This document shows positions 30,025 through 61,742 of a stretch of 64,000 nt of DNA, piece by piece. Source of the stretch: Amoebophrya sp. A120 (Eukaryota > Protista > Dinoflagellata). Made by a program: the position numbers and the translations under genes. Every line of letters starts with the position of its first letter. Within the stretch, counting starts at the first letter, position 1. The notes under the pieces were generated by a model that saw only the letters and a list, made by a program, of their open reading frames with translations, did no database searches and was not told the origin of the DNA. The DNA lies in NCBI GenBank assembly GCA_905178155.1, contig CAJINV010000003.1, positions 3,649,378 through 3,713,377 of the forward strand, written 5' to 3'.

Positions 30025-31090
30025 TCAGTAGTCATGCAAAGCCCCAGAGTTGCTTGTCACATTGTGTCTCCCCAAGCAGAGCAATGCGAGAAAAGAAGCA
30101 ATTTGCAATGCCACCATGGTCCCCAGACCAACACCCAAAGTCAGCTTTGCTTCTCGTTTCTCCTTCGCATAGAGCGCAGAGGCAGCACTCTTTGACAAAC
30201 CACCCTCAGCTACCATCGTGCTAATTTTCTCGAGCACCTCTTCATCCTCCATTGCCCCGAATATTGGACGGCTCATGCAGCCGTTCTGCTGCACAAACAT
30301 CACCAACTGTAAATGTTTTTTTGGGAGGTACGTGCCACGAGCTTCAGCAGTGCTGCAGCTTTCTTTTTACTGCGAGAAGTTAGTGAAAAGCAGAAAGAAA
30401 ATCAAAATGAAAAACGACAACATTATCTGCATGAATTCTGTACAAAACAAGCACGTCCTATACCAAGATCGCCCAGGAGAAGATGAAGATTCCCTTGACA
30501 AATGCCCCCGCAGGAATGTTGTAGTTGTGGTGCTTCAAGCGGGCACAGGTGATCACGCTGCAGACCAACGCAGTTGTATGGAAGCGTCAGGTTTGAAATC
30601 GTCAAAGTTGAAATAATTTGTAATGCATAAAATGCATGACCCGAGGCACGTGTGTTGCAGAGCAGGCAAGTGAGGCCGATTGTAAGCCTGTTTGGGGTTA
30701 CAGCTTGAGCTGCTAAAGTAGCATGAGAAAATCGCTCGTCTTTGCCTAAACAGCATGACAGAGTGGATTTAGGGACCAACGAAATTTGTCTTGCACCACT
30801 TGGAAACCGGGTTCCAACTGGCGTCCATTTTATGCATGACAAATTATTTCAACTTTGTCGATTTCAAACCTGACACATCCATAAGTTGCGCTCGCCACGT
30901 AGAGGATCATGCGCGCTTTTTCGAAGTCCTCGGGACCGTTCCCTTGGATGGTGACAAGTGGCGCAAAAATCGTGGCTATATCCAGGAGAATGACCACCCA
31001 GTCGGTCCACTGCCACCGCGAGTTATCGTCACTGTCGTGTAAAGCGACCCCTGGAACGATGGCGTGGTAGTAGCGTGCATGATACGCCAT
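30025..31090 (-). CDS. Small multi-pass membrane protein (~198 aa) interrupted by an introner
   Basis: Exons 31090-30884, 30571-30464 and 30306-30025. Removing the element plus TSD gives ...YVASAT-ALVCSVIT.... GT-AG intron at 30307-30463. About four hydrophobic segments. Confidence 0.65.
30577..30883. mobile_element. Introner/MITE family E (307 bp), TIR ~55 bp, TSD AGTTG
   Basis: Left end TATGGAAGCGTCAGGTTTGAAATCGTCAAAGTTGAAATAATTTG is the near-perfect inverse of the right end ...CAAATTATTTCAACTTTGTCGATTTCAAACCTGACACATCCATA. AGTTG at 30572-30576 and 30884-30888. Confidence 0.9.
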
Positions 31091-32149
31091 TTTTTTCGAC
31101 GAGTTTAGGGTCGGGTCACAATGATATCCTGAAGATAGAAGAGCTCTGTCGCTGATGAATAAGGTTCACTACAATCGAGCTACCTATGCCCTGAAGCTGT
31201 TCGTAGTTGTACGCCTGAAAAAGCATGCGGCTTCTGTACTCTGCAGCGCCGCTGAAATTTTCCGAAACACACCGAGGACAATAGCACGAGCGAAAAGCGT
31301 CTCGAGACCCCTCAGGATATTCTTCGCAGTGGCGCAAGAAAACGACAACGCAAACACCTTATTTACGAAGTCCAAATTCTGTCCGATGAGACGCTTCATG
31401 TAAAACTTCAGAAATTCACTCTTCCTCGGCGACTTTCGCTCGTTTCAACAATGAAATCTGCGCAACCTGGTCGAACTCAAGCTTATACAACAGAATATTG
31501 CGACAAACGAGGCTGAAGAAGGACTCTTCAGCAAGAACGTTTATGATTTTTTCAAATTTGATATTTTTTTCTTTTTGTTTTTCTTTTCAACCTCACTTCT
31601 CTTGCAAAATAAAAAACGCGTCAGTCAGCGGTGGAACTGCTTTTTCCGCCACTTCCAATACAGCCAAAAAACTACATTTCGAAAGCGCTACGAAGTAGTT
31701 GCTACGTTCTGATATATCATGCGATCATTTACAGTGTGATTACCGAAACGTATTTGCGAAACCTGGAACTGGATCAAATCATTCATGAAGCAAGGTTCTT
31801 CTTGGAAAAACAAAAAAAACTCTCTGTGATGTAAGACGTTTAGCACACGCAAGGCCATTCCAATTCATTTTTAGGCGAAAGCCAGTGAAAAAAATCGCTA
31901 TATTTAAAACTGATTTTACACCGAGATCCAGCGACTGCGCTTCAGCCGTGGTTCCGGGCGCGCCGCAACCGAAGGTCCGGCTAGCTGTAAAACAAAAACT
32001 TTTCCAAAAACTAGAAGGTCTAAACCGACTCTCTTTCAACATCGCTATATGTGTAAGGAAGTGCTATCAATGACAGACACAAGTCTGACTTTGTTTTATG
32101 ACTTTGAATTAGAATTTCTCCATATTCTTCTCAAAAAATAGGCCCCGCT

Positions 32150-41100: not shown

Positions 41101-44100
41101 CAGAAGCGCCAGCGATGCTGGAGCCGCGGACGGTGGTCCACCGCGGCTTCTACTGCCTTTAGAGGACGTCTTCCCCTTGCGCGCTGTGCTCCTTCGGGAC
41201 GAAAACGACAGCGGTGGCGACAGCGTCGTTCGGATGATTTCCAGCAGACTCAACGCTTTCTCCTTTTTCGCGTTCACCATCTCCTCCCGCTGCTTCTCCG
41301 TCATAATCCCCTTCCGCATGCAGGTCACCACGTCCTCCATACGCTTCAACAGCTTGGACTCCTGGAGCAGCAGGTCTTGCGTCGCCTCCCCCAGCGCGCT
41401 GACGGATTCGATGTACTCCGCGTTGAAGCTGAGATACCCCTGCACCTTCTTCTGCGCGTTCTGCAACGCCGTCGCCCGCGTGACGCCCAACAGCGCCTCC
41501 TTTACCTTCTTCTCGCGCACGAGGCGGTCCTGCGGTACGAGCCCGGGCAGGGCGCGCGCCTCGTCCGCTTTACTCTTCGCCTCAGAGGCCTTCTTGTCCA
41601 GCTGGGCGACCAGCTTCGTGCGCAACTCCGTGGCGGTTTTGGTCACCTCCGCGCGCCGCTTCTTCAACGCTGCTGCTTTTTGCTCCTTGATTTTTGTCTT
41701 CTCCGCGAGGTCCTCCTTCGCGAGGTCCAGGTCGATGATGGCGGTGGCTTTGCGATCTTGATTGTACTCCACGCGCTCGCGCAGCATGTCCTTGGTCGCT
41801 TGGGGAATGTCTTCGTCACTGTTCGCAAGCTTCCATAAAGATAAAATTTTGGGTATTGCGCGCGTGGTGTCGGCGATAATCTGCTCCTGCTCTGCCTTGT
41901 TGTCCTCTGCCAGGGTCTTGTTGACACTCGCTTCTGCGAGTTCCTGTAAAAATGTTGAAGGAGTAGAAACGAAATTGATGTGCAGAACGAGACAAAGTTG
42001 TGCGACCTTCGACAACCACACGAAAGGAAATTCGTATGATCTTTCTAAAGAAGTGTTTCAAGAAATTTAAGCTCACCGCAACAGGTGCCCGCAGTGAGTC
42101 GACGTCTTCAGAGAGCTTCTGCTGTGTGGTCCAGAACCTCGCTGCGAAGTCCGCGTCGTCAAATGCCTTCTTCAGGAAATCACGGTTCTTCTTTCCGGAA
42201 AGCATCACGCGAGCCAGCGCGGCCGCGCGGCGGTGCTCTGCTTCTGCGCCTAGAAACGCCATTTTCTTCGTGTTCCTCGTTTTCGCGGCTTGGCTCAGCT
42301 CCTTCAAAGTCTCCAGCATGGTCTTCTCAAACAGCTTCTTTTCCTTCATGTCCTCCTCCACTCGAACCCGAGTGGCCAGCAGGTGCGCCGCCGCGTACAC
42401 CCAGGGCGCCACGTCGGTTGAGTTTGGTTTGACTTCGTGAAACGCGGAAAAGTCCAGAATCTGTGCGCGCATCACCTTCATGGCCCCCAAAAGCGGTTGG
42501 GAAAACACGGTCACGTTTGCTGGCTTGGTGAGCTCACCGCGCAGGACCGTGGTTGTTGCATCGCACGAAGCCGGGTCCTCGCAGACGTTAAAGGATCCCT
42601 CCACTTCTTCTTGCGAAGTGCTGTTGACGTTGAATGTCACCGCGACGCGCCATCGCACGTAACCATTCGTCTCGTCTACCGCTTCTGGACCCGTTTTCTT
42701 GGCGCCCGACGGCACGCCAGGGAATCGATCGATGCGGAAGTCGTTCTGAAGCCTAAAATTGGTGTGCCCGGCTGGCAGCACCGCGGTCAGCGCCTTCTTC
42801 AACGCTGCGCGAACCGTCATATCGCTCCCCAGCTCGCTCCGGCCCAACGAGGGGAAAGTGGCCAAATAGGGCAACCCTGCTGGTTGCGCTGGGGCAGCGG
42901 CCGGCGGCGTCTGGCGAGCGTCTTCTCCCAGCCGGTATTTCTCGCTCAAGGATACGCCTCCGTCCTCTAACACCAATGCCGACGAGGGAGCGAAGCTTTC
43001 CATCGGCGCATCGTTCTCCGGGCTCTGCGCGACCGCGGACTGCAGCGCACTTAGGTGATTGCTATCGGAGAGCAACAGCTCGTCGTCGCGCATGTCGTGG
43101 AGTTCGCTGATGGCGTGTAGTGGCTCGCGCTGCGGCTGCGCCCCATCGGGATCTGTCACATCCCCCTCTTCCGCATCTGCCGTGGCTACCGCAAGGCCCC
43201 TCAGGTCGCGGACCTGAAGCAAACTAATGTGTGCTCGGTCGCGCTTGTCCTCCAGAATCGCTTCTAGCTCATCAACCACAGTCGCTTTCTTGTTTCCACT
43301 CGCAGTGGCCTTCGCCAGCTCCTGCTGCTTCCGCGTTTCCTGTTCTTGTTTCATATCCGCGTACGAAGTGGACTCCGTGCCGACCTGCAAAAAGAGCATT
43401 TCCGCACTGTGCCCTCGCGGAACTGATGACGGTGCTGTCGCTCCTACTGTGGAAGAAGATCCGGCATTATCCTGCTGGTCATTCAGATAATTGATCAAGT
43501 CGTCGTAGTCCTGCGGCCGAAGATCGTGTAGAACTGCATCCGCAACTGCCTCGGGTGCGGAAGACCCTGCCTGCGCGAGCTGCAGCATGGCCGCGCCTTT
43601 CGACTGAAGCATGCCAGCGGTTGGGAGGAAACTCTCGTCCCGCTGTAACAGGGTGACCGCGGCGGCCGTTGTAGCAGCAGTTGGAGTGGTTGCGGCCGGA
43701 ACTGGCGCTGCCCCCGCCGAGGCGGCGGCCGCTGCACCCGCCCCTGTTCCGGACGTCGCGTTCGTCGATTCCGGCACCCCGAAAAACTCGGCGACGGACT
43801 TGGCCGGAAAGCGGATCTCCAGCTCCGCGCGGACGAAGCCTTCCCCCCGCGCCACGGCCGTCTTTTCCACCGCCTGCTCGAAGGCCACCTCGCGTGCACG
43901 CAACCGATTCTCCGCGGCCTTCACGGCAAAACGCACATCCCGCACCGACGTGCGCGCCAGGTCGTCGGTTTGCTCTGCCAGGTACATCTCCATCTCGGCG
44001 GTCGTCAGATTCACCCGCGCCAAGGCGCGTGCGTGCGTCTCCTTCGTGCGGTTGAAGATGCCCAGCAACCGCTCCCGTTCCTCCAGCGCCTCCGCCTCCT

Positions 44101-47100: not shown

Positions 47101-50100
47101 GGCGTCCGCCACCCGCTGCCCCGCTTCCTTCTGCAACCGCACGGCGGTGTTGTACTCCGCGATCGCCTCCGCCTTGCCCACGTACGCCTCGCCCTCTTCG
47201 CGCAGGATCTTTTCGTTCCCGAGCTTCTCGTTCACCTTCGTGACGTTCGCCCCGCAGGCTTCCGCGTTCACGCCCGCCTCCCCGCAGTGCTCCTCCACCT
47301 CGGCTTCCCGGGTTTGCTCCCCGGGTAACGGCGTGCTGGCGTCGACGTCTGGAGAAACGGACGCAAGTGGTGGTTGGCCCGCGGCCGCGGCGGCAGCACC
47401 TTCAGTGCCATTGTTCTCGGTCGCATTACCGCTACTTGTCACGTTCGAGACGTCCTGCTGCAGAAACGAGACCTGTGCGGCCGGCGCCGGCGGAGGCAGG
47501 TCGGGATCAATCTTGGCCTCCCGATTAGCGGGGAAGGTCACTCCCGCGCTTTCGCCCCGATCGACCACTTCCTCCAGCACACCAGTGGCGTTCGCCACAT
47601 TCTTCTCCGCGATCTTCGTCCGCGCTTCGCTCTGCTGCAGCACAACGCGGCTGGCCGCGATCTCGCTTTCGGCATTCGCGTAGTTATTCTTCGCGTCCAG
47701 GAAGTCCCGGGTCGCCGCTTCCTCGACCTCCATCGCCGTGGCCAGGTCCGCTAGGCTGACGTTCCGCGCGACCTCGCGGTCAACCGCCTTGCGCTCGCGG
47801 GCGGCCACGCGCAGGTCGTGCGAGAGGCGGTTCTGGAAGCGCGCGCACTTGACGCCCCAGGGCTCGCACCCGGACAAATCGAAGTCGTCGTCAAACCAGT
47901 GGGCCTCCTCCTCGATCTCCTCGTCCTGCAACCGGCGCCGCGGATCCTGCGCGGCCGACGCGCGGAGGAGCAGTTTCCGGATGGCGTCCACGGTCATCAT
48001 CATTTCCTTCACCAGCTTCTTCTGCGCCGCGTCGGTGGAGTAGGACGGCAGCGCCTTGGCCTTCTCCACCCGCTCCTGCATGTCGTCCACGATGTCCAGC
48101 ACCTTCCCGAGGTCCGCGCCTACGTCCACGTCCGTCAACGGGTAGGTGCTATTTGCGTCCCCCCACACAAACTTGTCGTACATATTGCCGCCCTTGGCGC
48201 CGACCGCCTTGCGCAGCTGGTCCTTCAAATCCTTGATCTCCTGCTGCAGACTGCCGATCAGGTCGTTCTTGCCCTTCAGGCCGGTGACCTCCTCCTCCGA
48301 CAGTTTTTCGCCCTCGTTGGCGTCCGTCCACCAGGTGAGCGACTCGCGGTTGTACTTCTCCGTCAACTGCCGCAGTTCGCTGCGCAGTATCCTGAGTAAA
48401 AATGTCCCCACACCAGGGTCAAGTTGGCAAATCTGCAACACAAATCTCCAACTTTTGGCTGTTGAGCATGACAAGTTTGGGCTCGTAGTGTGATCCTGTT
48501 TGGCTAGCGCAGCCGCATGACAAATTGACTACCTTATCCTGATTCCAGCATGACAAACTCCCAGGTAGCATTAAAAAGTGGCTGTCTTGGGGCAACGCAT
48601 GAGAAACATTTTCAGCATGCAGATTTGCATTACAACTATGAGGTGCAGACGTTTTTACATAGGATACGCAGCCGCGCGTTGTCAGCCTGGAAGTACTCCA
48701 GATCTTTCTCCGCCGACGCGTAGTCCGACTCCAGCTCCTGCCGCACCTCTTTGTCTTGCGTGTGCTCCTGGCGGTACTCGGTCAGCTCCCCCTCCGCGGC
48801 CGAGAGCTGGTTCTCCAACTCCGTCACGCGGCCCTGCAGAATACGCTCCTTGCCCGACGCGTGCGTCGTGTCCTCGGAATGGTTGTGCTCCTCCAACCCA
48901 AGCTGCGCCTGCACACTCCGCAACTCCGCCGTCAAAGTCGCTACCTGTTTACCAAATGTTCTACTTTTTAGCCGTAAGATTTATTTTCTCGTTGCGTCAC
49001 GACGTGCCCCCGGGAGAGCAGCGGATGCAAGTATCATCTTTAATTAAACCATTCTTACTAGTCTGCTGTAGTACGCTGTCGAAGTCGGGAAAACGCAACA
49101 ACTCGTACCTCTTTTCTAGCTGCCGTAAGCTCGGCCTCGTCTCGCAAACGACGTTCCCTGTTTCGCTTCTCGAGCGCCACGGTCTCGTAGATGATCGACT
49201 GGACCATCGGGTTGCCCGTCTTCATGATTTTCCCAATGTTTTCCTGGACGTCCTTCTGCAAGGAGTCGTCTGTTTTGAAAACAAGAATTGCATGCGACTT
49301 TGCTTTCCATTGTAATGCGGATGCGTCAACAAGTTGCGAAACTACAAAGATGAAACACCGCAGAAATCTTCCTCGCGTACGAAAAAAAACACATACCGAG
49401 CTTTGACGGACTACTGCCAGCTTTCTCTCCTTGGGTTCCGCTTACCGCGGCTTCGTTCAAAACACCCTGCACCTGCTCCCGCATTTTTGCCACCGTTGCG
49501 CGATTGGCACTGAGCTCCGCCGTCATACCCTCGATTTTCTTGGCCATGGCGAGCGCTTCCGCGCGTTGCTGCTGCTCGTGCTCTACGTCTTCCGTTTTCA
49601 GATCGGTGTTCTCTTCCTCCTTCTCCTGCACCTTGCGCTTGAGCTCCGCTAACATCGTCCGCATCTCGCCCACCTGGCGCTGGGATTCCGCAGACGTGTG
49701 CTCCGCGGACCCGGTGCGTTGTCGGAACTGCTGCAACTGCTCCTCGTAAAAGTGCCGCTGCTCCTCGAGATGCGTCGTCAACTCCTCCACCTGTTTCGAT
49801 TGCTGCTGTGCGGTGGTGGTTAGATCACTTTTTTTCCGCTCCAATTTCGCTTCCTGAAAGGTTTTCTCCTCCTTCAGCTGTCGCTGTTCGTCCTGCAGGT
49901 GCTCCACTTCCGCCGTCTCCTTGGCTAGCGTTTGCTTGGTTTCTGATAACTCCTCTTCAACCTTCTTTTTTTGCGCCACTTCCTCCTGCAGGCGGCTGGC
50001 CTGGACCTCGGCGTTCTCCGCGCGGTGCCGGGCGTCCCACAACTGCGCCTGTAATTTCGCTATCCGGCTCGAAAGCTCTGTCGACGCCGCACTCGTCGCC

Positions 50101-52862
50101 CCAGCCGAACTCTCCGTCTGCAGCAACGAAGACTCCTGTCTACTTCTTGCGGTGCTAAAGGGAGACGAAGCTGCTGTTAACTCGGGTTGTACTAGAGGCA
50201 CTGCGAGCCGCGACGTTTCGGGCAACACGGCACTATTGCTGTTAGGCATCATGATCTTGTTCACATGTCCGCCCAGTTCAGCCAAGTTTGTGCTGCTGCC
50301 GGCCGCTAACTCTGCTGCGACCCGCACGCTGCGCTCCAGGTCCGCGGACTCCAGTTCTCGTTTTTCCGCATCGCGCTCCATCTCGGTCTCCCGCAAGAGA
50401 CGCGTGGACTCGCCAAGCGCCGCCTCTAATTTTGCAACTTTTTCCTGCCCCGAGGACAGTTCCGAGAGGTGCTTGCTCAAGTGCTCTTTCTCGCCTAGCA
50501 GTTCCGCGAGTTGCCTCCGCGTTTGTCTCAACTGCTGCCCGGCCAGGTCCCGCTCACTCTTCATCCGCTGCGCTGCCGCGGTCTGCACCTTCGCTTCCCT
50601 CTCCAGAACGCGCTCCAAATCTTGCTGCTTCAACTTCTCCTTCGTGGCCTTTCCATTAGCTACCGCTCGCTCAGCGCCGGCGTGGAACGCGGTTTGCTTC
50701 AGCGCTTCCAGCTCCGACCGCAGCGCCTGGTCTTTCGCCTATCAAATATAAAAATGTCTGGGTCTGGAAGAATCCGAACTTGTGATGCACATTTCAGAAC
50801 ACAGAAAAATCTCTCATGCATGGGTAGCAAAAGCTGCCCACTTTCTGTCACCAAAGTGGGGGATTTGTCATGCGGATTCGGCATTGCGGAAGCTTCTCGA
50901 AACCTGTAATGCTAGAGCTTCCATGCCAGACCTTCTGTGTCATGCAAAAACAGCATGACTCTTCCAGACCCAGACATTTTTACATTTGATATCGCCGCCG
51001 CCTCGTCCAAGGCCGTGGCCGCCGCCTTCTCTACCTGTCGGTGCAGCACCTCCGCGTCTTCCGCTTTCCTCTTTTCCGCTCGCAACTTCGCGTTCTCGGC
51101 CTGCAATTGCTCAATGAACGCAACTTCTTCTGCCGACAAAGAACCCGTGTGGTGGTTGTGCGTATCGGAGAAGAGCTCCAACTGCACAAACGTTGGAAAT
51201 TGGTTTTTCAGTTCCTCTGCTCTGCCGTCCTCGCCCGACTGCTTCAGCAGCATGCGCAGAATGTCCATTTCCGCAGCGAACGCCTCCTTGGCCTTCTGGT
51301 ACATGCCGCGCCCGCGCTCGAGCCGATCGTAGATACCGGGACTCAGGGTCACCGTCCCGTCCGCCTTGATGCCGAGTCCCAACTTGTACAGATCCGTTCC
51401 CAACTGCAAGGCGTGGTTCTTCTCCAGCTTTTCCTTGGTTTCCAGCCAATCGGCGATAACCGCGCTGCGCTTCTATCCTGATTAAAAACGTCCCCACACC
51501 AGAGTCAAGTTGGCAAATCTGCTAGACAAATCACACAGCTTTGGTTGTTTGGCATGACAAGTTTGTCCTCGTAGTGTAATCCTGTTTCGCTAGCTCAGAA
51601 GCATTACAGATCTAGCCTACCATGCTGATTCTAGCATCACAAACTCCAAAACACGAATAGAAAATGCTTCTCATAGGGCTCCGCATCATCATCATCATGT
51701 AGTGGACACCCGCTCCCAGCGCCACAGGTCAAGGATCCCCTCCCCGGGGGGTGGGCGAGGAAGCACTTTCGGCGACCTCAACATACAAAAGCCGAGCGCT
51801 ACCACGGCAAGTCGCCCCAATACAAGTGCCAACCAGTCGGGAGCTACCCACCACACCTGATCAGCACAGCCCGGCCAGCTAGCCGAGCGCGACAGCCGCA
51901 TGAGAAACTTTTTTGGCATGCAGAATTGCATGACAACTCTGGGGTGGGTACGTTTTTACATAGGATAGCTTCGTTGCTTTGTTCAGGCCGAGCGACTCGG
52001 GGCCAGAAACTGGGTCCGCCGCTTGGTCGGACCTGTCCTTGTAGGCCAGGTCGAGCGCGGAGATCCTCTCCTTCAGCTTCCGCTTCGAGTCCTCAATCAA
52101 CTTGTTCCCCGTATCCAGGAGCGCTTCCACCTCGGCCGGCGACATCTGATCGGTAGTCGCGTCCCCGATGGCGCGCCGCTCCGTCTCCGCCAGCGCGAGA
52201 TCGTTGTTGAAGTCTGCGCTTTTGTGATAGTGACCAGGCCGCCGATGATGTTTTTGCGACGGCGACGTACTTCTACTTTCATCGACATCGTCCGCAAGTT
52301 GTGCTGGTAATACAGAGGAGCTGCCGAAAATGGTACCGTCGCTGGCATGGTGGTTCCAGACCTCACCAAGCCAGTCGTAATACTCCTCTTTTTCGGTTTC
52401 CTGTTCGAGCCCGCTCGTGCCTGCCAGCACGCGGCTCTCGCGGCTGCGCAGCTCGGTCTGCAACCGGTACCGCTGCGCGGGACAAGTCTGCGCGCAAGAA
52501 AGCGACTCCTCCACATTCTCGGGGTCTATCTTTACGTTGCACTGCACGTAAATCGCGGTTTTCAGGTCGGGAAACGGATCCGCGAGAGCGTCCAGGGTCC
52601 GGGGCAGGGCAGCACATTGCCCGTTTTCTGTCCTCCTAGTTTTCCGTCGCTTCGCTGACGCCGAAAGTAGAACGGTGTCAGCCTCCTCCTGCAGAAACGA
52701 AGTGCGTGGCCTGCCGCCGCGACTGCGACCACTTGATGTCGCTGGTCGTCGGAACGGCAATTTCGGACGGACGCGGAACACCGGAACCGCGAATGCGGTT
52801 TGCAGACTCAGGAGTGCCGCGGACCATGATGAGGCGGACCTTCTCCTCACGAAATCTGCCAT
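32150..52862 (-). CDS. Giant secreted coiled-coil protein, ~5966 aa, 13 exons, with a C-terminal Cys-rich (WSC/PAN-like) domain
   Basis: Exons 52862-51968, 51468-50992, 50734-49446, 49255-49109, 48944-48667, 48382-46769, 46551-45968, 45657-45014, 44888-44744, 44430-42077, 41943-34681, 34580-34122 and 33901-32150. Seven GT-AG introns plus five introners, all phases consistent. Signal-peptide-like N-terminus (SWSAALLSLQTAFA) and many NxT sequons. Confidence 0.75.
44436..44743. mobile_element. Introner family A copy 1 (308 bp), TSD CGTGG
   Basis: TIR TATTACAATGAAAAATGCCCCC / GGGGGCCTTTTTCACTGTAATA. CGTGG at 44431-44435 and 44744-44748. Excision restores AYHV-LVYR. Confidence 0.93.
45663..45967. 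mobile_element. Introner family A copy 2 (305 bp), TSD CCGTC
   Basis: Highly similar along its full length to 44436-44743. TIR CATTACAATGAAAAATGCCCCCACCCCC / GGGGGTGGGGGCATTTTTCATTGTAATA. CCGTC at 45658-45662 and 45968-45972. Excision restores SKTD-VDLQW. Confidence 0.93.
48388..48666. mobile_element. Introner family D copy 1 (279 bp), TSD CGCAG
   Basis: TIR TATCCTGAGTAAAAATGTC / GACGTTTTTACATAGGATA. CGCAG at 48383-48387 and 48667-48671. Excision restores ARLR-SELRQ. Confidence 0.92.
50740..50991. mobile_element. Introner family C copy 1 (252 bp), TSD TCGCC
   Basis: 32-bp TIR TATCAAATATAAAAATGTCTGGGTCTGGAAGA / TCTTCCAGACCCAGACATTTTTACATTTGATA. TCGCC at 50735-50739 and 50992-50996. Excision restores EAAAK-DQALR. 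Confidence 0.93.
51474..51967. mobile_element. Introner family D copy 2 (494 bp including a nested insertion), TSD GCTTC
   Basis: Homologous to 48388-48666. TIR TATCCTGATTAAAAACGT / ACGTTTTTACATAGGATA. GCTTC at 51469-51473 and 51968-51972. Excision restores KATKR-SAVIA. Confidence 0.92.
51687..51895 (-). mobile_element. Nested non-LTR-type (SINE or 5'-truncated LINE) insertion with an (ATG)n tail
   Basis: Absent from the paralogous copy D1. Flanked by CCGCAT at 51681-51686 and 51896-51901. (CAT)4 at one end only. 494-215 = 279 bp, exactly the length of D1. Confidence 0.75.
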
Positions 52863-53709
52863 GGTATTCCAAGCGCCCCAGCAAACTTCTGCGCCGGCAT
52901 ATTGCGGCCTCACCACCCAAGGTCAATCCCCCAGCGTGACCTCAGATGCATTCTTGATGAAACCGATTTTATCGATGTGCCAAGTCTGCTCTAGTTGTAG
53001 TTGTCTCGTTTTATCGCTTTTCTCTTACTTTTAGTTTACCGCTTCTGTCATACTGGTACCGATGTTACGGCACCAGCGAATGTTCATACCCACCAGCTCA
53101 TACCCACCACCACGACCATTTTGCAATTTTCCGCTCGAAGAAAATTAGAATAAGCAGACTACATTCTCTCGACGTCAACCTGTCGTCAACAATAGGGCCG
53201 TGGGAGTACAACAAGAACCCTTGTTCAACCCGTTTCACAGAACACTTATCTATCAGGAAAAGTGCAGAATTTTCCCTTCTGCTTCTGCATCGAACTGATG
53301 CTGCAAAGACTTTCAGAAAACGCGCAAGGTGATACTGACGGCGAAAGTACCAACTTCTCAACCAAGTGGCTGTGAAACGATCCAACAGATAGAAGTTGAA
53401 ATCCCTTCTCGGAAGATTGATTGCTGTAAAAAGATTGTGAGGATGTGTGTCTCCTTCAGAGAGAGTTCACGCATACGCATTCCGCAAGTGCTACTGGATC
53501 TGCGGCCACGCAGATGAAGCAAGCAACTCCATTCCACTACACCACCGACCGGCATTCTCCGACGCCCGTAGTACCTCCACGATCAGCTCTATCCCTGATA
53601 AAGTCCTGTGTAGAAGTGCCTCCCGTGCCGAAGCCGTGCTTGTGAAGCTCGCACTACATCTCGCATTGTCACAGCCAGCGCCAACTTTTCGCATTTTGGC
53701 GCGAACGCT

Positions 53710-56700
53710 TCACATGTTGTCGAAGTCGAAGTCCTCGTGGTGATGCGCTGAGCCGGCTTTCCGGATGTTGACCGTCCTCTTCCCTTTGCTGTTCTGGATA
53801 AACTGCCCCGCTCGTTGAAAACTGGCGAGCCTTTGGAATTTTTGCGCAGCGCTCAGTTTATGCGTTCCGGCCGGCCCCACCGAGCCTGCGGTATCCACGT
53901 CGGTCCCAACCTGCAGCGCTACTACAGCCTCGGGCGACGCTTCCCCTTCCGGCGCCCCCGCTTGTTGTTGTGCGTTCTCCACCAAAGCAGCATCCTCCTT
54001 ATCGACAATCTCGGCAGCCGGAACCACAACTGTTCCCGCGACCAGTGCTGGATCCATTTCCGTTTGCTCCACTACCGGTTCCGCATTTTTTCCGGACGTA
54101 CGCATGGTGGGCATTTCTGAGTGAAGATTACCCACGGTGCGTTTTCTTTTCAAGCCGATGCCCTTCTGCATCTGCGACGTCAAATTCCCGACGGTGCGCA
54201 TACTTAGCAGCTTCCTACTTCCCAATCCTCCTACAGCATCTTCGTCCTCACCTTCGTCCTTCTCGCTACTGGCTTCGCCCTCGCCCCTGACCTGGGACTT
54301 CTTTCTCTTCTGCGGCTTCTTGCAGCAAAGCCGCCGGCTGACCGCCTTATCGTACCTAATTTCGCAGTAGGAAAGCAGCGCGATTTCGACGACTCCGAGT
54401 ATACCGAGCACCACTAGCAGCGCAATCAGGGCGGTGTTGTTCTCCCCCGAACTAGAGCCGGAAGACACCATGGGCGACGATGCCGCAACTACAGACTGGG
54501 GCAAGTAAACAGACATCGTCCCCACTGTGGGCGTCGCGGTGGCCACACTCGTCGTGACGTTGTTCAGTCCGACCGATTGCAGGGTCGCACTGCTTGCCAC
54601 AGCTGCTTGGAAGGATGAAGTGAATCCCTGCTGAAACGCGGTCGGAGAGCCGGCGCTCAGCTGGGCGACCATCGCCTGCGCCGAAGAGCCCCCGTCGAGT
54701 GCCTCGCTCGCATCAGAAAACCGGATTTCGTAAGCCACCGCGACCGTGACGGTTGATCCGACAGTGACGTTCGCGCCCGTCGTGGCGGTCAACACGCGAA
54801 GCAATGAGGGGCTTTCGATAACGATCGAGAACAAGATCCAGAAAAACCTTGCGCACTCGATTGCCGTGGTCAGAATGCTGTTGGTCGCGGCACAAATGCT
54901 AGTCTTCAACGCGTCCAGGAAGCCGGAGCACACGGAAATACTCGGATCGTTGAGCTTGTCCGTCGAGCCGCAGGCGGTGACAAAGGCGGAATTCCCGGAG
55001 AAGCTCAGCGTCATATTCGTGCCCGCGGAAACAACCGACGCTTCCGCCTCCACCAAGGGGTCGTCCGCGGATCCCCCCGTAGCGGACGTGGCGTTCGTGT
55101 TGTAGAGGTCCCCGATCGAAATGGGAGTGGTCGTCGTTGTTGGGGCGCTCGTTGCGGGGCCCACGTAGGGGGTTGTGGTCGAGGTGGACGTCGTCGTCGT
55201 AGAGCTTGTGGAGGTCGTCGTTGGCGGTGGCGTCGTCGTGCTGGTGGTGGTGTACGTCGAGGTCGTGGTGGTGCTCGTGGTCGTCGTTTCCCGGTAACAC
55301 AAGGTGGCGTGGCGCGAAACCCCGCTGTTGGAGGTGATTTTACTCAGCGCGTTGAAAATGCAGCTCTTACTCGCGCCTTGCCAGCTGTAGCAGCACCCCC
55401 CGAGCGGCAAAAAGTCGTCGTTGCGCGTCAAGTTCGTCGTGGCGTCAAACAGTCCCAGTTCCGAGGCTTTTTCTTCGCACTTTTGCAAGCACTCGTTGCT
55501 CACGGTCACATCTAAGTTCGTCACTTCGCTTGTGAGAGAATGCTCTAATGTGGAATCGGAGCAGTGCAGCGTGTTGGCGAACCCATTCGCGGGGTCCAGT
55601 GATTTCCCCGCCGCGGCGTCGATGGCGCCGCTCCCTAGAGTGCAGGAATAGGGCCACTTGGTTGTGGTGGTAGTCTCGGAAACAGGCATGCACAAACTTG
55701 CATACATGTAGGCGCCACTCGTCTCCTCCAGATCGTCGGTCACGCCCGCGTACCAGCGGCACGTGGAACTGGGTGCGTAATTGTAACAGCACCCGACCGT
55801 GTTTTGGAAGCTGGAGTAGAGATCGCAGAATCTCTGGCAGCTCGACGTGCTGTAGTCGTAGCCGGCGCTGACGAGGTGCGGAAAATTGTGCTGGTAAGCG
55901 GTGTCCTCCGTCGTAGCGGTCCCGGTCAGAGAAGTGGTTTGGTCCGCAAAGGCCGTCAGATTGCACCGTCGGTACGCCTGCATCTCGTAGCACTTGTAGG
56001 CTTCGTTTTCGCAGTTATCCCCGGCGCGCCGATAATCACACTCCGCACACACGCACTCCCCGTATTTTGTCGTCGTGCGCAAGCAGTGGCCGTTGTACTT
56101 CGCCTCCTCGATTGCGCAGTTCTGACAGCTGTTCGTAGTGCTGCTGAACACCTGAAAAAGGATGGGAGCGTGATTCTATGTATGAAGCACCGACTCCGGA
56201 GATCTTCCACAACCGCTACGTAAGAAAGTGCTTCAAATCCATCAAAATGCAAGAAAATAGACCAGAAGTAAGAGGAAGATTTGAAATTCGAAAAAAACGA
56301 CAAAAATCATAAAAACAAAGACGTGTACCTGCCCCGCCCGGCACTGCGTGACAACGGGCTGTATAGCTGTCCACGCTGACGCGAAAACGTACCAGTCGCA
56401 ACAAGGGTCGTAGAGGAAATCGACGCCCGTGGTAAGAGACAAAATCTTATCTGTGTTCCAACCAAATTTGTCGCTGGTGTTCCGCTCGAACTGCAGAGAC
56501 GGCCTCTGTTGGCGCAGCAAAATTGAAGGACCATTTCCGTCGTCCCACTTTAGTTCCGCGGGCCACAGCTCCCACTCTGACTTGGTCCAGCGGTCCATCC
56601 CATCCTTGCTGTAAGCATGCGCACCCCGAATCTTTTTCCGGTTGGAGGTGTGGTCCGTAGACTGCGTGTGCATGATCATGTGCGTGCCCCCCTGTTTGTC

Positions 56701-58152
56701 GATCCACATGAACAGATCCTCAGAATCTTGGAAAAGCGGAACGCCGAGCCGCGTATAGGGCCCACGCCACCACTCGGACGGATCCACGCCCGCCGGGTTG
56801 GAAGAAATCAATAATCCCACGCGCTCCGTGTGGTCGTGCGACGTGTCCGCGTCGCACCTCGTCCCCCGGTAGGCAATCACGGTGGTGCCATTCTCGTGCA
56901 CTACGAAGGACGGGTCCTTCGCGTCGCAGTCCCATTGGTCCAGAGTCCCGCTGTTCATGCCCTTGTGCACGCCGTCTTTCCACCCGTACACCATCTTGAA
57001 TCCCCAGGGGCCGTTCATCCCGGTCGTGGAGTTGTAGATCGCGAGGCCGAACACCCCGTTCTCGCTCCCGGTGGAAAGCATCAGCAGCTCGCTCGGCTTG
57101 GCCGGGTTTTGTTTCACGTCCGCGCGGAAAGGACCCTCCGCCCACTTGGGGTCGCGCATCTCGGTGAACGGGTATTGCAAGGAAACGTCCCCCCTCCCCA
57201 TATTGAAAGCACGTCTGTGATGCAGATTTGCGACCACAAGTCGGGCCTGTCTTGCAAAGAGGCACGCTCAGGCTTTCCGCCACGTCATAAAGGCGGTCTG
57301 TAATGCTGTAAGGCCTACAGGGTAGCCGTCTACCATGCGAAGCGCCTACACCAAGAGGCCCGCGGCTAGACTTAGGATCTGCGTGCAGTCCTCTACTGCA
57401 ACACAAATTTGATTTGTGTATCCAAATCCAGCATCAGAAGTTTCGTTTTGATATGGGGTGGGGAGATTTTTCCTTTTGATAACGGGCCCCACGGGTTCCC
57501 GCCCACGTCGGAGACGAACCTGGTCAGGATCGGTCGTTGCTCAAAGATTGTGTCATTCAAATAGGGGTTATAGGTCGTGGTGAAGTACCAAGGGATGCGA
57601 CCCGCAGTCTGGAAGACGGCGGCGCCCGCGTTCACGTTTTGCTGCGCCGCATTGTAGGCCGGACTCCGCCCCCAGGTGGTGTAAGGATCCACAACATTGC
57701 CCCAGTAGGGAAGATCGCCGGTGGGGTCCGGGCCCCCATCCAAGTACTCCTCGCTGATCACCTTTCCGCCCGTCACGAGATGCCAGCGGTTGTCCGTCGG
57801 TTCGAACCAAACAGTCCCTCCCCAAGTCGGATGGGACGCGTTCATCATCCACAGACCGGGCGCGCTGCGCTTCAACGGAAGTAGATCCAGCTGCGTACAT
57901 TCCGGTCCCCGCCAAGGAATTTTGCACTCGCATTGATACGTCGGAGCGTTGTGATAATCTAGGGTGGACGTGTCAAGCTCACAGAAGCCGTTCCCGTGTC
58001 AAGCTCACAGGGTCGCACGCCGTGAAGTTGTAGTCCCAAAACCCCCACGATGGCCAGCTTGGAACGCTCCGTCTACCGAGGACACAATCATCGCTCACGC
58101 GCTGCGCTGCTACAAGGACGAAGAGGAGCCGCGGTCTCTTTCTGCGCAACAT
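53710..58152 (-). CDS. Type I membrane/surface protein: EGF-like motif, glycoside-hydrolase-like propeller region, Cys-rich repeats, Thr-rich mucin stalk, TM helix
   Basis: CECKIPWRGPECTQLDLLP (EGF-like). WGG, DPSF, WRGPY, EDLFMWID, HAYSKDG..W and RQQRP resemble GH43/32-like propeller proteins. GT-AG intron at 56152-56328. Poly-Thr stalk at ~55130-55290. TM ALIALLVVLGILGVVEIALL. The 5' exon junctions (~57240-57480 and ~57980-58010) are uncertain. Confidence 0.6.
57969..58010. repeat. 16-bp direct repeat CGTGTCAAGCTCACAG, period 26
   Basis: Copies at 57969-57984 and 57995-58010. Confidence 0.9.
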
Positions 58153-59046
58153 GCACGACCTCACAAAGGTTGTACAATGCTCGAGATAGCTGGCGTCTAA
58201 TAATTCATACCCTATATTATCTTTCCTGGAGCAGGCGCGACTCGCGCCCCACTATCCGCCGCAGCGCGGCAGCTTTGGCTAATTTGGTTGCGTAAGAGAG
58301 CAAAGGCATTCACAAGCTCAAGGAAAAAAAACAGCAGTCTCCGTTTTTTCTCTCTTTCCATACGAAATGATTTATCTAAGATAAAGCGTGTGGTCAAATC
58401 ATCAAAACAAAAAATGAAACAGACGTTTGCGTTTGGGTGCGTAGCCACTAAGCCCTGGGTGGAGTTACAACTTGAAACCCAAATTGGCGGTACTGTTTGG
58501 TCTACTCATCGAGTCTAACTGACAGTCGTCGACACGCCTCTCTCAAGTGGTCTGAACAGATTCGACTATTCTCTCTCGGTCTCTGGTGTAAAGTCGTCCT
58601 CTCAACATGCGATTAATCGCACTGACCGATGACATTTCTGGTGTGAAATCATCCCCTCAACATGCGATTGACACCACTGACCGATAACAATTCTGCCTCC
58701 GAACGTCTGGTACGTGGGTTCTGCCAGTATGCGTTCGCTTTCGAACAAACTCTTGATCGCCCAGAGCAGCCGAGATTCGCACAGGCAAGCTCCTGACCAC
58801 ATCCATACGTCAGATGCCCCCATGCGCATACTGTGTCGAACTATTTGATGAGCTGATATTTTTGCACCTGTGCACTGGGCACGAAAGCACGCGTCGTCGA
58901 ATCGGAGTGCGCTTCTCCAGTTTTCTTTCATTTCTTACTCGCAGTCGCTCCTTCTACATCTACTGAATAATCGCTCGCACCATACAAAGTAGTCCTGTGG
59001 TACCGAAACACGAGCCGCACGGGTTTCCATCGTCGACCCACCAGAC

Positions 59047-61038
59047 CTACACCTTTTCTTGCGTCCGATTATCGATCAGAGGCTCTTGACTCGTAAGTTC
59101 GGCCGACGACGGCAGATACTCTCCCAGCGCGGACTGAGTCTTTGTGCTGCTCGTTCTTTTCGAGGCTACTTTACTCGCCGGCGTGCTTTTCTTCTTCTTG
59201 GCCAGAGAATACAGCACGAAGCCGGTGCTGGTGAACGCAATGGCGAGGAGAATGTAGTAGCTATTCAAATCCCATGCGGCTTTCGGACTGCCGAAGCCGA
59301 CCCAGATTTGGCGCACCGAGTAGAACGAGGGCGTTTCCCACGCGATGCAGTAGAACATGGTTGTAACCAGGGGCACGGCGACCCCCATCGCGACCGTGCT
59401 CATGGTCGCCGCCCCCGCGTGCTTGACCAAAAACAGCTGGAGCGTGGTGGAGGAAACGTTCACCAAGGCCTGCATTGTCAGCCACAAACCCAGATTCTGT
59501 TCGCTGCAGAACCGCGACGCCTCTCCGCGCCCCACGAAACACTCCGCCCCCTTCGGGATGAGCGGAAACACCTCGCTGACCGGGATGGGGTTCGCGTTCA
59601 AAAACGGCACCGCCGCGAACAACATCAGCGGAATTGTGAAGACGAGTTGGAAAAAGTTGATCCACTGGCTCATGTACCACAAATCTACATTCTGCAGGTG
59701 CCGCAGGTTCGCCTCCTTCATGGTGTAGGACGCGGAGTAGAACAAGGGCTTGAACAGATATATGATGATGAACGTTGCCAGCGAGGACCCCGATAGTTGC
59801 GACGAAGAACCACCGTCGTCCGCGTCCTCCCCCAGATTGTTCAGTCCGCGCCCGAAAACCGACAACGCCGCCCCGCAAATCAGAAGCAACGCGCCGACGT
59901 ACTGGAAGGCCACGAACCGCTCCTTAAGGAAGACGTAGGTAAGCAGCATGATGAAGGGCAAGCCTATCTGGTCCAACAGTGGCTGCACGGTGCCCGGCGT
60001 GCGCTGTCCCAGGGCGTTGGCCAGATTTGCCATCGCGTCCAAGCCCGCGAGCACGGCGAACACCCAGATCGGGATCTGTCGCCGGACCTCCTCCCGCAGC
60101 CGCCATGCCTCCGGAAACAGCTGCGGAAACCAGCGCCGCGGGTAGACGAAAAAGCCAAACACCGTAAAGTAGAACAGGTTGATCATGTTATTTGCGAAGA
60201 GGGAGTAGTCCTGGGCCTTGTCTTCGATGATCTGGAGCGTCTGTCGGTCGGTGGCGTCGAAATCCATACCCGGCGGGACGTCGTCGTTCCGCAAGACGGA
60301 CCCCCACTTGGCGAACGCCTTCTTGGTGAAGAAGGCATCCAGGTATCAAATGTAAAAATGTCTGGGTCTGGAAGAATCCAACTTGTAATGCTGCGTTTGG
60401 ATTCCAAAAAAATCTGTATTGCATGAGTACCAAAGGGAATGTAATTCTTGCTACGCGGAGAGGGCATTTGTCATGCGGAATAGGCATCAAGAAGCTCTCA
60501 AAAAATCTGTGCTGCTAGGGCATGCATCACAGACATCAGGGCTCATCCAAAACGTGCATGACAAGTGTCAGAGTCTTCCAGACCCAGACATTTTTACATT
60601 TGATACCAGGAGTCGGGCAACCACCACCAGAATCACGAGACCAACAAATTGCACGGGTCTCAGGGTAGAAGTAGAGGTGGCCGGGGAGGCGGCGCCCTTT
60701 ATCTTCTTTATCCCGTCCTCGTCTCTACTTGCACTAGAAGCTGGCACCACAAAAGAGCCCCTCGTTGTGGAAACGAGGGTCGAACTCCCCTTAAACTCCG
60801 CATCGTCCTGTTGGGCGATGCCCCCGTCATTGTTCCGACCGGTCGGAGCTAAGGTGCCAACCGCTGGGTAGTACTCCACTTCGCTACCGGGCGTAGCCGC
60901 GGACGGCCTTACAGTCGCTGCAGAAATTCGAGCAGGCCGCAAAGTGCTGCTAGTGCTGCTCCCCGGCTTTTTTCCTCTCGCGGAGCCTTGGTCTCCCGCG
61001 CCCGCGCGGCGCCTCAGTACATCCTCCCGTTGGCTCAT
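59047..61038 (-). CDS. CRT-like (chloroquine resistance transporter family, DMT superfamily) transporter, ~574 aa
   Basis: About 10 hydrophobic helices. TPGTVQPLLDQ..LPFIMLL..FLKERF...QYVGA, VDLWYM..W...FQ and GAECF are CRT/CLT-family features. Exons 61038-60606 and 60338-59047 are joined by introner removal. Confidence 0.8.
60344..60605. mobile_element. Introner family C copy 2 (262 bp), TSD CCAGG
   Basis: Perfect 32-bp TIR TATCAAATGTAAAAATGTCTGGGTCTGGAAGA. CCAGG at 60339-60343 and 60606-60610. Excision restores ARLLD-AFFTK. Confidence 0.93.
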
Positions 61039-61742
61039 GAAAAGTTGTGAATGTAAAGAATCAATCTGAAGATAGACAGTACGGAGCTGATATAAAGGCA
61101 AGCTGGAAGACACAACCAAAGATTAATTGGTCCGCAACAAATCTTCCAGGAACAATTACAATTTGCAGCAAATTAGGTAGATATCAAGCATATCAATTTT
61201 CAACACGTCAATACTTCGTAGATTAATACTGTCCATCGTGTATTCACAGATCGCATGAAACGGCACACAAAAAGACCCGAGTCTTTTTTTTTGAAAAGTG
61301 ATCCATCAAAATTATCTGGTACCGAAGCTACAGCTAGATTTACATCACAAACCGATCGGAGATCTCCTGCAGGCATTTGCATTTGTACTAAACAGACCAC
61401 TTGCACTACTACCGAGAATCTGACAATGCTTGACCGACGACATTTTCTTTGATCTTCAGAGCATTACAGCAATTCCGACCCATTTCTTCATTTTCGATTA
61501 AGTAAACCTCCTATGTTCCAGTATCAACATCAAGGAGATAAGCCCTCTGGCGGAGGCAATAGGACCTACCGAGTTGCCGTTTGCAGAGGCGTGGGGTCAC
61601 ATTTAACTTGGATGCTATATTCTCAATGCACTTAGTGAGAAGATTCTCAATCTTTATTCTCAGATCGGAAAGAAAGCGTTAATCGGCGGTTCCATCCACC
61701 GTCGCTAGGGCGTCAGCCGGGCAAGAACTCCGGCACGGAAAT

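Follow-up and report, generated by a model that had tools for sequence, protein, structure and literature searches.

Introner elements and their host genes in the window

The window analysed here, a 64,000-nt stretch of DNA, contains eight introner elements with terminal inverted repeats (TIR), each flanked by an exact 5-bp target-site duplication (TSD) and each located in a gene read on the minus strand. The elements, their hosts and the ordinary introns of the same genes are as follows.

30458..31090, minus strand: ORF predicted to host element 1, with 106 aa once the element is removed
30577..30883, minus strand: element 1, 307 bp, TSD AGTTG at 30572-30576 and 30884-30888, inside the predicted 106-aa ORF
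42100..52900, minus strand: large gene hosting elements 2-6 (the part tested), without a Pfam match; once spliced, it reads as a single open frame of 2834 codons
44436..44743, minus strand: element 2, 308 bp, TSD CGTGG, RNA joint skips 313
45663..45967, minus strand: element 3, 305 bp, TSD CCGTC, sense TAT...ATG, RNA joint skips 310
48388..48666, minus strand: element 4, 279 bp, TSD CGCAG, RNA joint skips 284
50740..50991, minus strand: element 5, 252 bp, TSD TCGCC, with a possible GC-AG register, RNA joint skips 257
51474..51967, minus strand: element 6, 494 bp, a 279-bp family copy plus a nested insert, TSD GCTTC, RNA joint skips 499
51681..51895, no strand assigned: secondary insertion within element 6, 215 bp, 6-bp direct repeat, (CAT)n end
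53700..58260, minus strand: region of the gene hosting element 7; splicing gives a frame of 1265 codons, with an EGF-like match too weak to pass the cut-off
57173..57481, minus strand: element 7, 309 bp, TSD ACGGG, RNA joint skips 314
59047..61038, minus strand: A120 gene GSA120T00002176001 (574 aa), a CRT-like transporter that hosts element 8
60344..60605, minus strand: element 8, 262 bp, TSD CCAGG, RNA joint skips 267
44889..45013, 46552-46768, 48945-49108, 49270-49396 and 56152-56328, minus strand: canonical GT-AG introns, from sequence and RNA joints

Searching the window for ends of the form [TC]AT...AT[AG] beside a 5-bp repeat gives 71 candidates; terminal complementarity reaches 18-25 of 25 bases in eight of them and at most 14 of 25 in the remaining 63. 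Among 200 local shuffles, 196 yielded no such element and four yielded one. The seven elements listed in an earlier sequence-only reading (1-6 and 8) were all recovered with the same places, lengths and TSDs, and an eighth, element 7, had been overlooked. Seven of the eight fit the pattern TAT-N7 followed by at least three A at both ends (one end being CAT); element 1 has the TAT without the A-run. In the predicted folds, the two ends of each element form long stems, 16-30 of its first 30 bases being paired with the opposite end, with z values of -2.1 to -12.8 (12 shuffles per element). With their TIR, constant 5-bp TSD and absence of coding capacity, the elements show the traits of MITEs or other non-autonomous TIR DNA transposons. 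No transposase was found in the 39 frames scanned, and Rfam gave no match anywhere in the window.

These are the introner elements published in 2021 for the genome of Amoebophrya sp. A120, and thus an already known class. The link to Amoebophrya introners, drawn in the earlier reading, holds on two grounds: the genome is the same, the protein of the element 8 host being 100% identical to A120 GSA120T00002176001, and so is the anatomy. Farhat et al. (2021; PMC7789003) describe A120 introners with TAT-N7-AAA inverted ends, direct repeats of 3-5 nt, a mean length of about 240 nt and splice dinucleotides that vary, GT-AC, GT-CG and CT-AG among them; apart from element 1 and its missing A-run, the window elements do not differ from these in kind. 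That paper reports no transposase for the introners in A120, and lists U2, U4, U5 and U6 as found and U1 as not found. The table of Gozashti et al. (2025; PMC12130899) has 58 introner families for A120; among 21 of its rows, most are classed as 'TIR DNA, unknown', with many non-canonical ends.

When an element is retained, a stop codon falls inside it in all eight cases, closing the upstream frame as had been proposed. When the five elements and four GT-AG introns of 42100-52900 are cut out at their RNA joints, a single frame runs through 2834 codons without a stop; it is broken by retaining any single element or by keeping both TSD copies. The annotated A120 protein equals the translation with element 8 and one TSD deleted. 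The earlier observation that removing the element plus one TSD restores the ORF is confirmed. The ordinary introns said to occur in the same genes are also there, five in the hosts of elements 2-7, and their donors are all GTAC or GTAT.

Splice-site registers and probable removal at the RNA level

Considering all sense-strand junction registers across the TSD, GT-AG is possible in none of the eight elements and GC-AG in one. Element 1 offers neither GT nor AG in any sense register, and element 8 (60344) offers GT..AG on the antisense strand only. The earlier list of sense-strand options, according to which sliding the junction over the TSD never gives GT-AG, was thus reproduced, and the GT/GC-AG borders of U2 spliceosomal introns do not describe these elements. 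Use of cryptic GT-AG sites had been named as what would speak against removal at the element and TSD boundaries: same-length, frame-keeping cryptic pairs adjoin the elements at 30577, 48388 and 50740, and at the latter two the RNA joints fall at the TSD instead.

We compared likely-RNA contigs with the loci of elements 2-8, element 1 (30577) lying outside the compared region. At all seven loci these contigs lack exactly the element and one TSD, and they also skip the GT-AG introns. Together with the annotated A120 protein, this supports the proposal of precise removal without GT-AG sites. The label 'RNA' is a software guess for contigs from one sample, whose source libraries carry no record as RNA, and most joints come from one contig at a depth of 4-6. 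The joints were seen in run X3 (elements 2 and 3), X3 and X7 (element 4), X3 plus X4 with a short side (element 5), X4 (element 6) and X8 (element 8), those of elements 3, 4, 5 and 6 being flagged 'between: not known'; the joint of element 7 is contained in single long contigs from each of the four runs. No go-back joint appeared in these contigs, which says nothing for or against a lariat. Raw RNA runs X9-X11 matched at element ends only, with 119, 3 and 0 reads.

Reverse transcription can switch templates at a hairpin with a direct repeat, a known class of artefact. The skipped forms might accordingly have arisen in this way from genes that are dead or read through, as the elements offer just such a hairpin and short repeat and the libraries behind the RNA contigs are not on record. 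We regard this as very improbable, since a retained element gives a stop in 8/8 cases, the 2834-codon frame is open only with all five elements removed, the element 7 joint recurs in single long contigs of all four runs, and reading frames are concordant at 90/97 sites in another lineage, as described below.

Removal at the DNA level had also been suggested, by analogy with ciliates, whose internal eliminated sequences (IES) are transposon-derived, lie in exons, are precisely removed leaving one repeat copy and are absent from somatic DNA. The TIR and TSD anatomy and the precise restoration would suit such programmed excision. Nevertheless, DNA contigs cross every exon-element border of elements 2-8 unbroken at a flat 40-46x, so that IES-like removal is not supported, and the Amoebophrya elements, in contrast to IES, remain in the sampled DNA (one run, life stage not on record). 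No element-skipping DNA joint occurs among the 15 joints listed (410 more fell outside the listing), and the contigs that do skip elements also lack the GT-AG introns. Moreover, this parasite is not known to have a separate somatic nucleus, so copies excised from DNA would be lost from the lineage. We therefore give this explanation next to no weight. Summed over contigs, the depth at elements 2-8 greatly exceeds that of unique bins (42-62x), showing that the elements are repeated across the genome.

Flanking repeats and reading frames in a second Amoebophrya

The element families of the window are shared with a second Amoebophrya present in a metagenome, where all eight window elements have relatives. 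Strands and frames in this organism are codon-model calls, the model being right on 155 of 161 window pieces. Of 308 pairs of flanks, 210 carry an exact repeat of 5 bp, one carries an exact repeat of 8 bp and none has one of 4, 6 or 7 bp; a further 42 pairs match at four of the five bases. Independent frame calls to the left and right imply that 5 (mod 3) bases are kept at 90 of 97 strand-concordant sites, a count that excludes the 19 of 116 confident sites that were strand-discordant. Both orientations occur (35:24, 9:13, 8:5 and 3:5), although the largest family is skewed in a stricter set (20:7, p 0.019). Five long elements with perfect repeats contain short frames only; the two that were read through, L053 and L022, resemble short copies into which non-coding DNA has been inserted, and a homolog search for L041 returned no match.

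Splice dinucleotides at 146 coding sites of the second Amoebophrya are close to chance. GT is available at 63 (64 expected), AG at 75 (73-75 expected) and neither at 35 (35-36 expected); GT-AG registers, slightly above chance at 10 versus 5.3-6.4 (p 0.05-0.10), run counter to a sequence-blind measurement of the cuts. These counts bear on a spliceosome that would recognise the elements by sequence in one fixed register. N-TAT would then be a weak donor and the U-tract of the TIR would act as the pyrimidine tract, while the hairpin would play no part or be only a relic of transposition. The GTAC or GTAT form of the five canonical donors is in keeping with this, as is the G directly before TAT in four of the eight window elements. 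Furthermore, all nine predominant non-canonical A120 sites in Table S4 of PMC7789003 begin with N-T, which aligner placement within the repeat could also cause. However, TAT is preceded by G at 44 of the 146 sites (44.5 expected) and AG is found in this register at 17 (11-13 expected), and a spliceosome needing neither G+1 nor AG must obtain its precision elsewhere. Such recognition thus appears improbable. Extra conservation of the terminal TAT was not apparent (16 changes in 1104 sites versus 40 mismatches in 1185 repeat pairs).

The imperfect repeats address a different possibility, namely that the direct repeat itself guides RNA removal by copy-choice or repeat pairing and that the hairpin merely brings the repeats together. 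The repeat is perfect at each of the eight elements in the window and in 210 of the 308 pairs, and each RNA joint seen falls within the repeat. On the other hand, 42 pairs match at only four of five bases, and where poorly flanked elements have no nearby repeat, element+5 is still the best frame in 10 of 13, mostly by small margins (another offset is preferred in 4 of 19 poorly flanked elements, L006 among these being a near tie). Where repeats are displaced from the stem, the displacement is 3 or 6 bases in 6/6 cases, a restriction that a repeat-guided cut would not need. By comparison, 58 of 168 interior indels have a 3n length (p 0.0017; p 0.014 for the four displacements outside the TIR); in this set of six, two are insertions inside the TIR and one, L002:2123, is not clearly coding. 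We consequently see a slim chance for guidance by the repeat. The restriction to 3 or 6 bases suggests instead that the cuts are measured from the hairpin as by a ruler, a suggestion drawn from small numbers. At imperfect repeats synonymous changes are in excess (19/31), which is compatible with either model. At L075:961, it is the downstream copy of the repeat that encodes the residue found in the RRS1 orthologs of A25 and AT5, a point in favour of cuts measured from the hairpin.

Three further approaches to the cut register were dropped: a stop codon at L010:748 proved by eye to involve a strand mis-call, the stop-based argument from L002:2123 fell because the site is not clearly coding, and data on mutation direction at the single repeat positions were too few to set it.

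Proposed removal mechanism and related systems

The elements are dispersed families, present in DNA and exactly absent from spliced contigs, with a 5-bp repeat and no GT-AG register. We propose, with a probability of roughly two in three, that they are non-coding hairpin-ended introners removed from pre-mRNA by cutting at set distances from the terminal hairpin that their ends are predicted to form. Insertion by a transposase or integrase would duplicate 5 bp, and the inverted ends may then pair within the pre-mRNA. Two cuts outside the stem would together take away five bases of any sequence, which would cancel the duplication and restore the exon. Judging from one datum, the intron probably includes at least the base before TAT. 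Of the earlier idea that excision is defined by the TIR stem and the TSD, the stem is retained in this proposal, while the role of the TSD is weakened by the imperfect and displaced repeats of the second Amoebophrya.

If hairpin-measured cutting is correct, a relaxed U2/U5/U6 spliceosome core, relying on the hairpin in place of U1 and of AG recognition, has somewhat better than even odds of being the catalyst, and a separate nuclease-ligase system falls a little short of even. Since the TIR provides, whichever way the element points, both a TAT resembling a donor and a 3' U-tract, orientation independence is compatible with a spliceosome. A more radical version is in our view less likely than not: a spliceosome-independent machine might read the geometry of a long RNA hairpin alone and remove the hairpin with exactly five flanking bases. 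Any matching 5-bp-duplicating insertion would then be a perfect intron, in either orientation, in any sequence and even 7 bases from the next, amounting to an RNA-level undoing of transposition in at least two lineages. Such a sequence-blind remover, if real, would explain how tens of thousands of exon insertions are tolerated. It would also be a counterpart of the Euglena system and a candidate tool for excising RNA without a scar.

Both the elements and the question of their removal are in print for A120, and what is added here is a possible narrowing of the mechanism and a testable hint. PMC7789003, in the part available to us, leaves the introner borders 'variable'; orientation, the chance level of GT and AG and the displaced repeats come from the present analysis. 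No paper resolving the removal mechanism in Amoebophrya was found in the literature searched, which covered few subscription papers. If the cuts are set by the stem, the reported splice-site diversity would be random target sequence only, and the true cut positions could be read at imperfect repeats in existing A120 DNA and RNA.

Several known systems invite comparison. In the tunicate Fritillaria borealis, non-canonical introns derived from MITEs likewise have TIR and TSD, spread recently and are removed despite their non-GT-AG ends; in contrast to the present elements, among which no dinucleotide is favoured, a few sites dominate there (AG-AC, AG-AT) and the spliceosome is implicated (PMC11282704). 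The nonconventional introns of Euglena (PMC12501133) and of hemistasiid diplonemids (PMC12621601) also lack GT-AG, have paired ends and lie beside ordinary introns, in a lineage unrelated to Amoebophrya. The Euglena introns leave as circles (review PMC11282704), and PMC12501133 describes a required paired motif, N3-CDG ... CH'G-N5-6 plus an exonic purine. The window elements, which end in TAT/ATA, do not carry this motif; its set spacer lengths from the intron borders are nevertheless ruler-like.

Elements and genes of the window

All seven introner elements described by the sequence-only reading were found in the window, with inverted ends (TAT...ATA) and a 5-bp direct repeat in coding exons, and its count had overlooked an eighth of the same kind at 57173-57481, whose RNA joint is the best supported of all (four of four runs). 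TAT/CAT-type ends combined with a 5-bp repeat gave 71 candidates, and terminal complementarity was 18-25 of 25 bases in these eight and at most 14 in the rest; of 200 local shuffles, 196 yielded no such element and four yielded one. No TIR elements were found in positions 1-30500. Host frames lie on the minus strand throughout. The claims that a retained element ends translation within itself (8/8) and that GT-AG boundaries are missing also stood: no sense register gave GT-AG, one element gave GC-AG and element 30577-30883 had neither site. Folding predicted long terminal stems, and a hexamer of GCAT(C/G)A type recurs three to six times in each element, possibly as a binding site of the mobilising enzyme.

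534-22371, minus strand: Pfam-matched genes (carboxyl transferase, biotin carboxylase, eRF1/pelota-type, MMR_HSR1 GTPase, poly(A) polymerase-like domain)
about 32150-52900, minus strand: very large gene (or two) in which five of the eight elements sit; the frames scanned matched no Pfam family
51681-51895: nested insertion of 215 bp within element 6 (51474-51967, 494 bp); it carries a direct repeat of 6 bp, and one end is (CAT)n

The host protein of element 60344-60605 is 100% identical to the Amoebophrya sp. A120 CRT-like transporter GSA120T00002176001, whose 574 amino acids are the exact translation once the element and one repeat are deleted. In the part available of Farhat et al. 2021 (PMC7789003), A120 non-canonical introns have inverted repeats of TAT, seven variable bases and an A-run (a motif fitting 7/8 window elements), direct repeats of 3-5 nt and 29,850 repeated copies, and the window elements were the same on every feature tested. 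Because of the identical host protein and this agreement, the elements are the published class in its published genome, real and already known, as the earlier link to Amoebophrya introners implied. The available part of Gozashti et al. 2025 (PMC12130899) gives TIR DNA, superfamily unknown, for most of 21 of the 58 A120 rows in one dataset.

Removal from RNA or DNA

Four runs that are likely RNA, all of the same sample, supplied contigs for comparison with 43000-61500, which covers seven of the eight elements. At 7/7 loci these contigs skip 313, 310, 284, 257, 499, 314 and 267 bases, the element plus 5, at joints that all fall inside the repeat and are mostly represented by one contig each (depth 4-6; four flagged 'between: not known'). 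Junction mapping, which had been proposed from the sequence, thus bore out the precise removal claimed there. Five GT-AG introns are likewise skipped, two sharing a contig with an element. With the RNA joints applied, 42100-52900 forms a single frame of 2834 codons that is broken by keeping an element or both repeats; a template-switch artefact is very improbable. Element 6 is skipped entirely, its nested insertion notwithstanding. Part of that insertion (51684-51777) recurs in likely-RNA contigs of other loci, as the end of a retroelement might do.

In the DNA run X1, introns and intergenic DNA are evenly covered, eight long contigs of 40-46x depth cross from exon to element end with the border unbroken, and the 15 joints listed (410 further) include none that skips an element. 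These unbroken borders, and the loss of GT-AG introns from the same skipping contigs, speak against the IES-like DNA removal suggested earlier; excision from DNA is hardly credible, and removal is most simply placed at the RNA level. In the raw RNA runs X9-X11 matches were limited to element ends. About 110 X9 reads from another strain or locus bear the end of this element family that lies at 60344-60392 in the window, 65 of them with one common unrelated flank, and reflect either an element retained in RNA or library DNA.

Relatives in a second Amoebophrya lineage

A metagenome scan with the terminal motif gave at least 130 loci, and 80 of 80 among the matches listed were JACKZZ01 contigs; the best full-length matches of the metagenome RRS1 exon were Amoebophrya A25 (58%) and AT5 (56%). 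Relatives of 8/8 window elements occur among these loci (best identities about 76% to 97%); this Amoebophrya-like organism shares the A120 element families. Element density was about one per 1.6 kb around motif matches, a biased sample. Of 308 paired termini (eight from the window, some mis-paired), 210 had an exact 5-bp repeat, 42 matched at 4/5 and none had an exact repeat of 4, 6 or 7 bases.

Strand and frame came from a codon model for which the window served as training set (155/161 held-out pieces correct; one error spotted by eye). Left and right flanks were called independently, with confidence on both sides at 116 sites; strand was discordant at 19 of these, and 90/97 strand-concordant sites implied 5 (mod 3) bases kept; metagenome insertions therefore very likely act as precise introns too. 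Element pairs 7 and 13 bases apart (L037:161-820, L054:2665-3262), each element with a perfect 5-bp repeat, would enclose micro-exons. At L053:1547-2930 (1.4 kb) and L022:3001-3972 (1.0 kb), short copies with perfect repeats appear to be enlarged by unrelated non-coding inserts. The P0006 RRS1 frame is 85% identical to that of L075 over 39 residues and then continues as a peptide resembling a translated element end, elsewhere in the gene; it is possibly a lineage-specific insertion.

Cut definition and comparison with known systems

Splice signals at 146 sites in coding context, all with perfect repeats and drawn from 177 that had been selected out of 237, were compared with random re-insertion of elements. 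A GT register existed at 63 sites (64 expected), an AG register at 75 (73-75) and neither at 35 (35-36); G preceded TAT at 44 (44.5), and a GT-AG register occurred at 10 (5.3-6.4; p 0.05-0.10); a spliceosome reading sequence only is unlikely. Orientations in the four largest families were 35:24, 9:13, 8:5 and 3:5, with a skew of 20:7 (p 0.019) for the largest in the stricter set.

Removal guided by the repeat is quite unlikely: among 19 well-paired elements whose flanks match poorly, 15 still preferred element plus 5. In six of the 19 a perfect repeat is shifted from the stem (one without clear coding context), by 3 or 6 bases in 6/6, against 58/168 interior indels of 3n (p 0.0017; p 0.014 for the four shifted repeats outside the TIR). 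A stem-measured cut, at which these data hint, predicts such shifts because the shifted bases would enter the mRNA. At L075:961 the repeat copies differ at the last base and the downstream copy encodes the serine seen in A25 and AT5 orthologs, so the base preceding TAT is probably intronic.

We favour, at roughly two chances in three, a hairpin ruler that acts on pre-mRNA and removes the elements by cuts at a fixed distance from the terminal hairpin. A transposase duplicating 5 bp would have inserted the elements, their ends would pair in vivo and a fixed total of five flanking bases would be removed. A relaxed spliceosome is slightly favoured as catalyst, since A120 retains U2, U4, U5, U6 and most spliceosomal proteins (PMC7789003, part available, in which U1 snRNA and a transposase are given as not found) and the inverted end supplies TAT and a 3' U-tract in whichever orientation; in the five canonical introns seen, the donors are GTAT/GTAC, which resemble that TAT. 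A separate nuclease-ligase is almost as probable, because neither G nor AG is needed.

Our literature search found no paper settling the Amoebophrya mechanism. What is new is confined to the RNA check at these loci, the second lineage with common families, the occurrence of splice signals at chance level and the hint of a ruler, directly testable with existing A120 data. As far as the parts available of the following sources go, a different Amoebophrya possesses U1 along with canonical introns (PMC12005148), and Euglena nonconventional introns, which require a paired motif at fixed spacers (PMC12501133), resemble the present elements in way of working, although the Euglena motif is absent here. 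Diplonemid paired-end introns (PMC12621601) share this way of working, and a review (PMC11282704) already puts these systems in one group.
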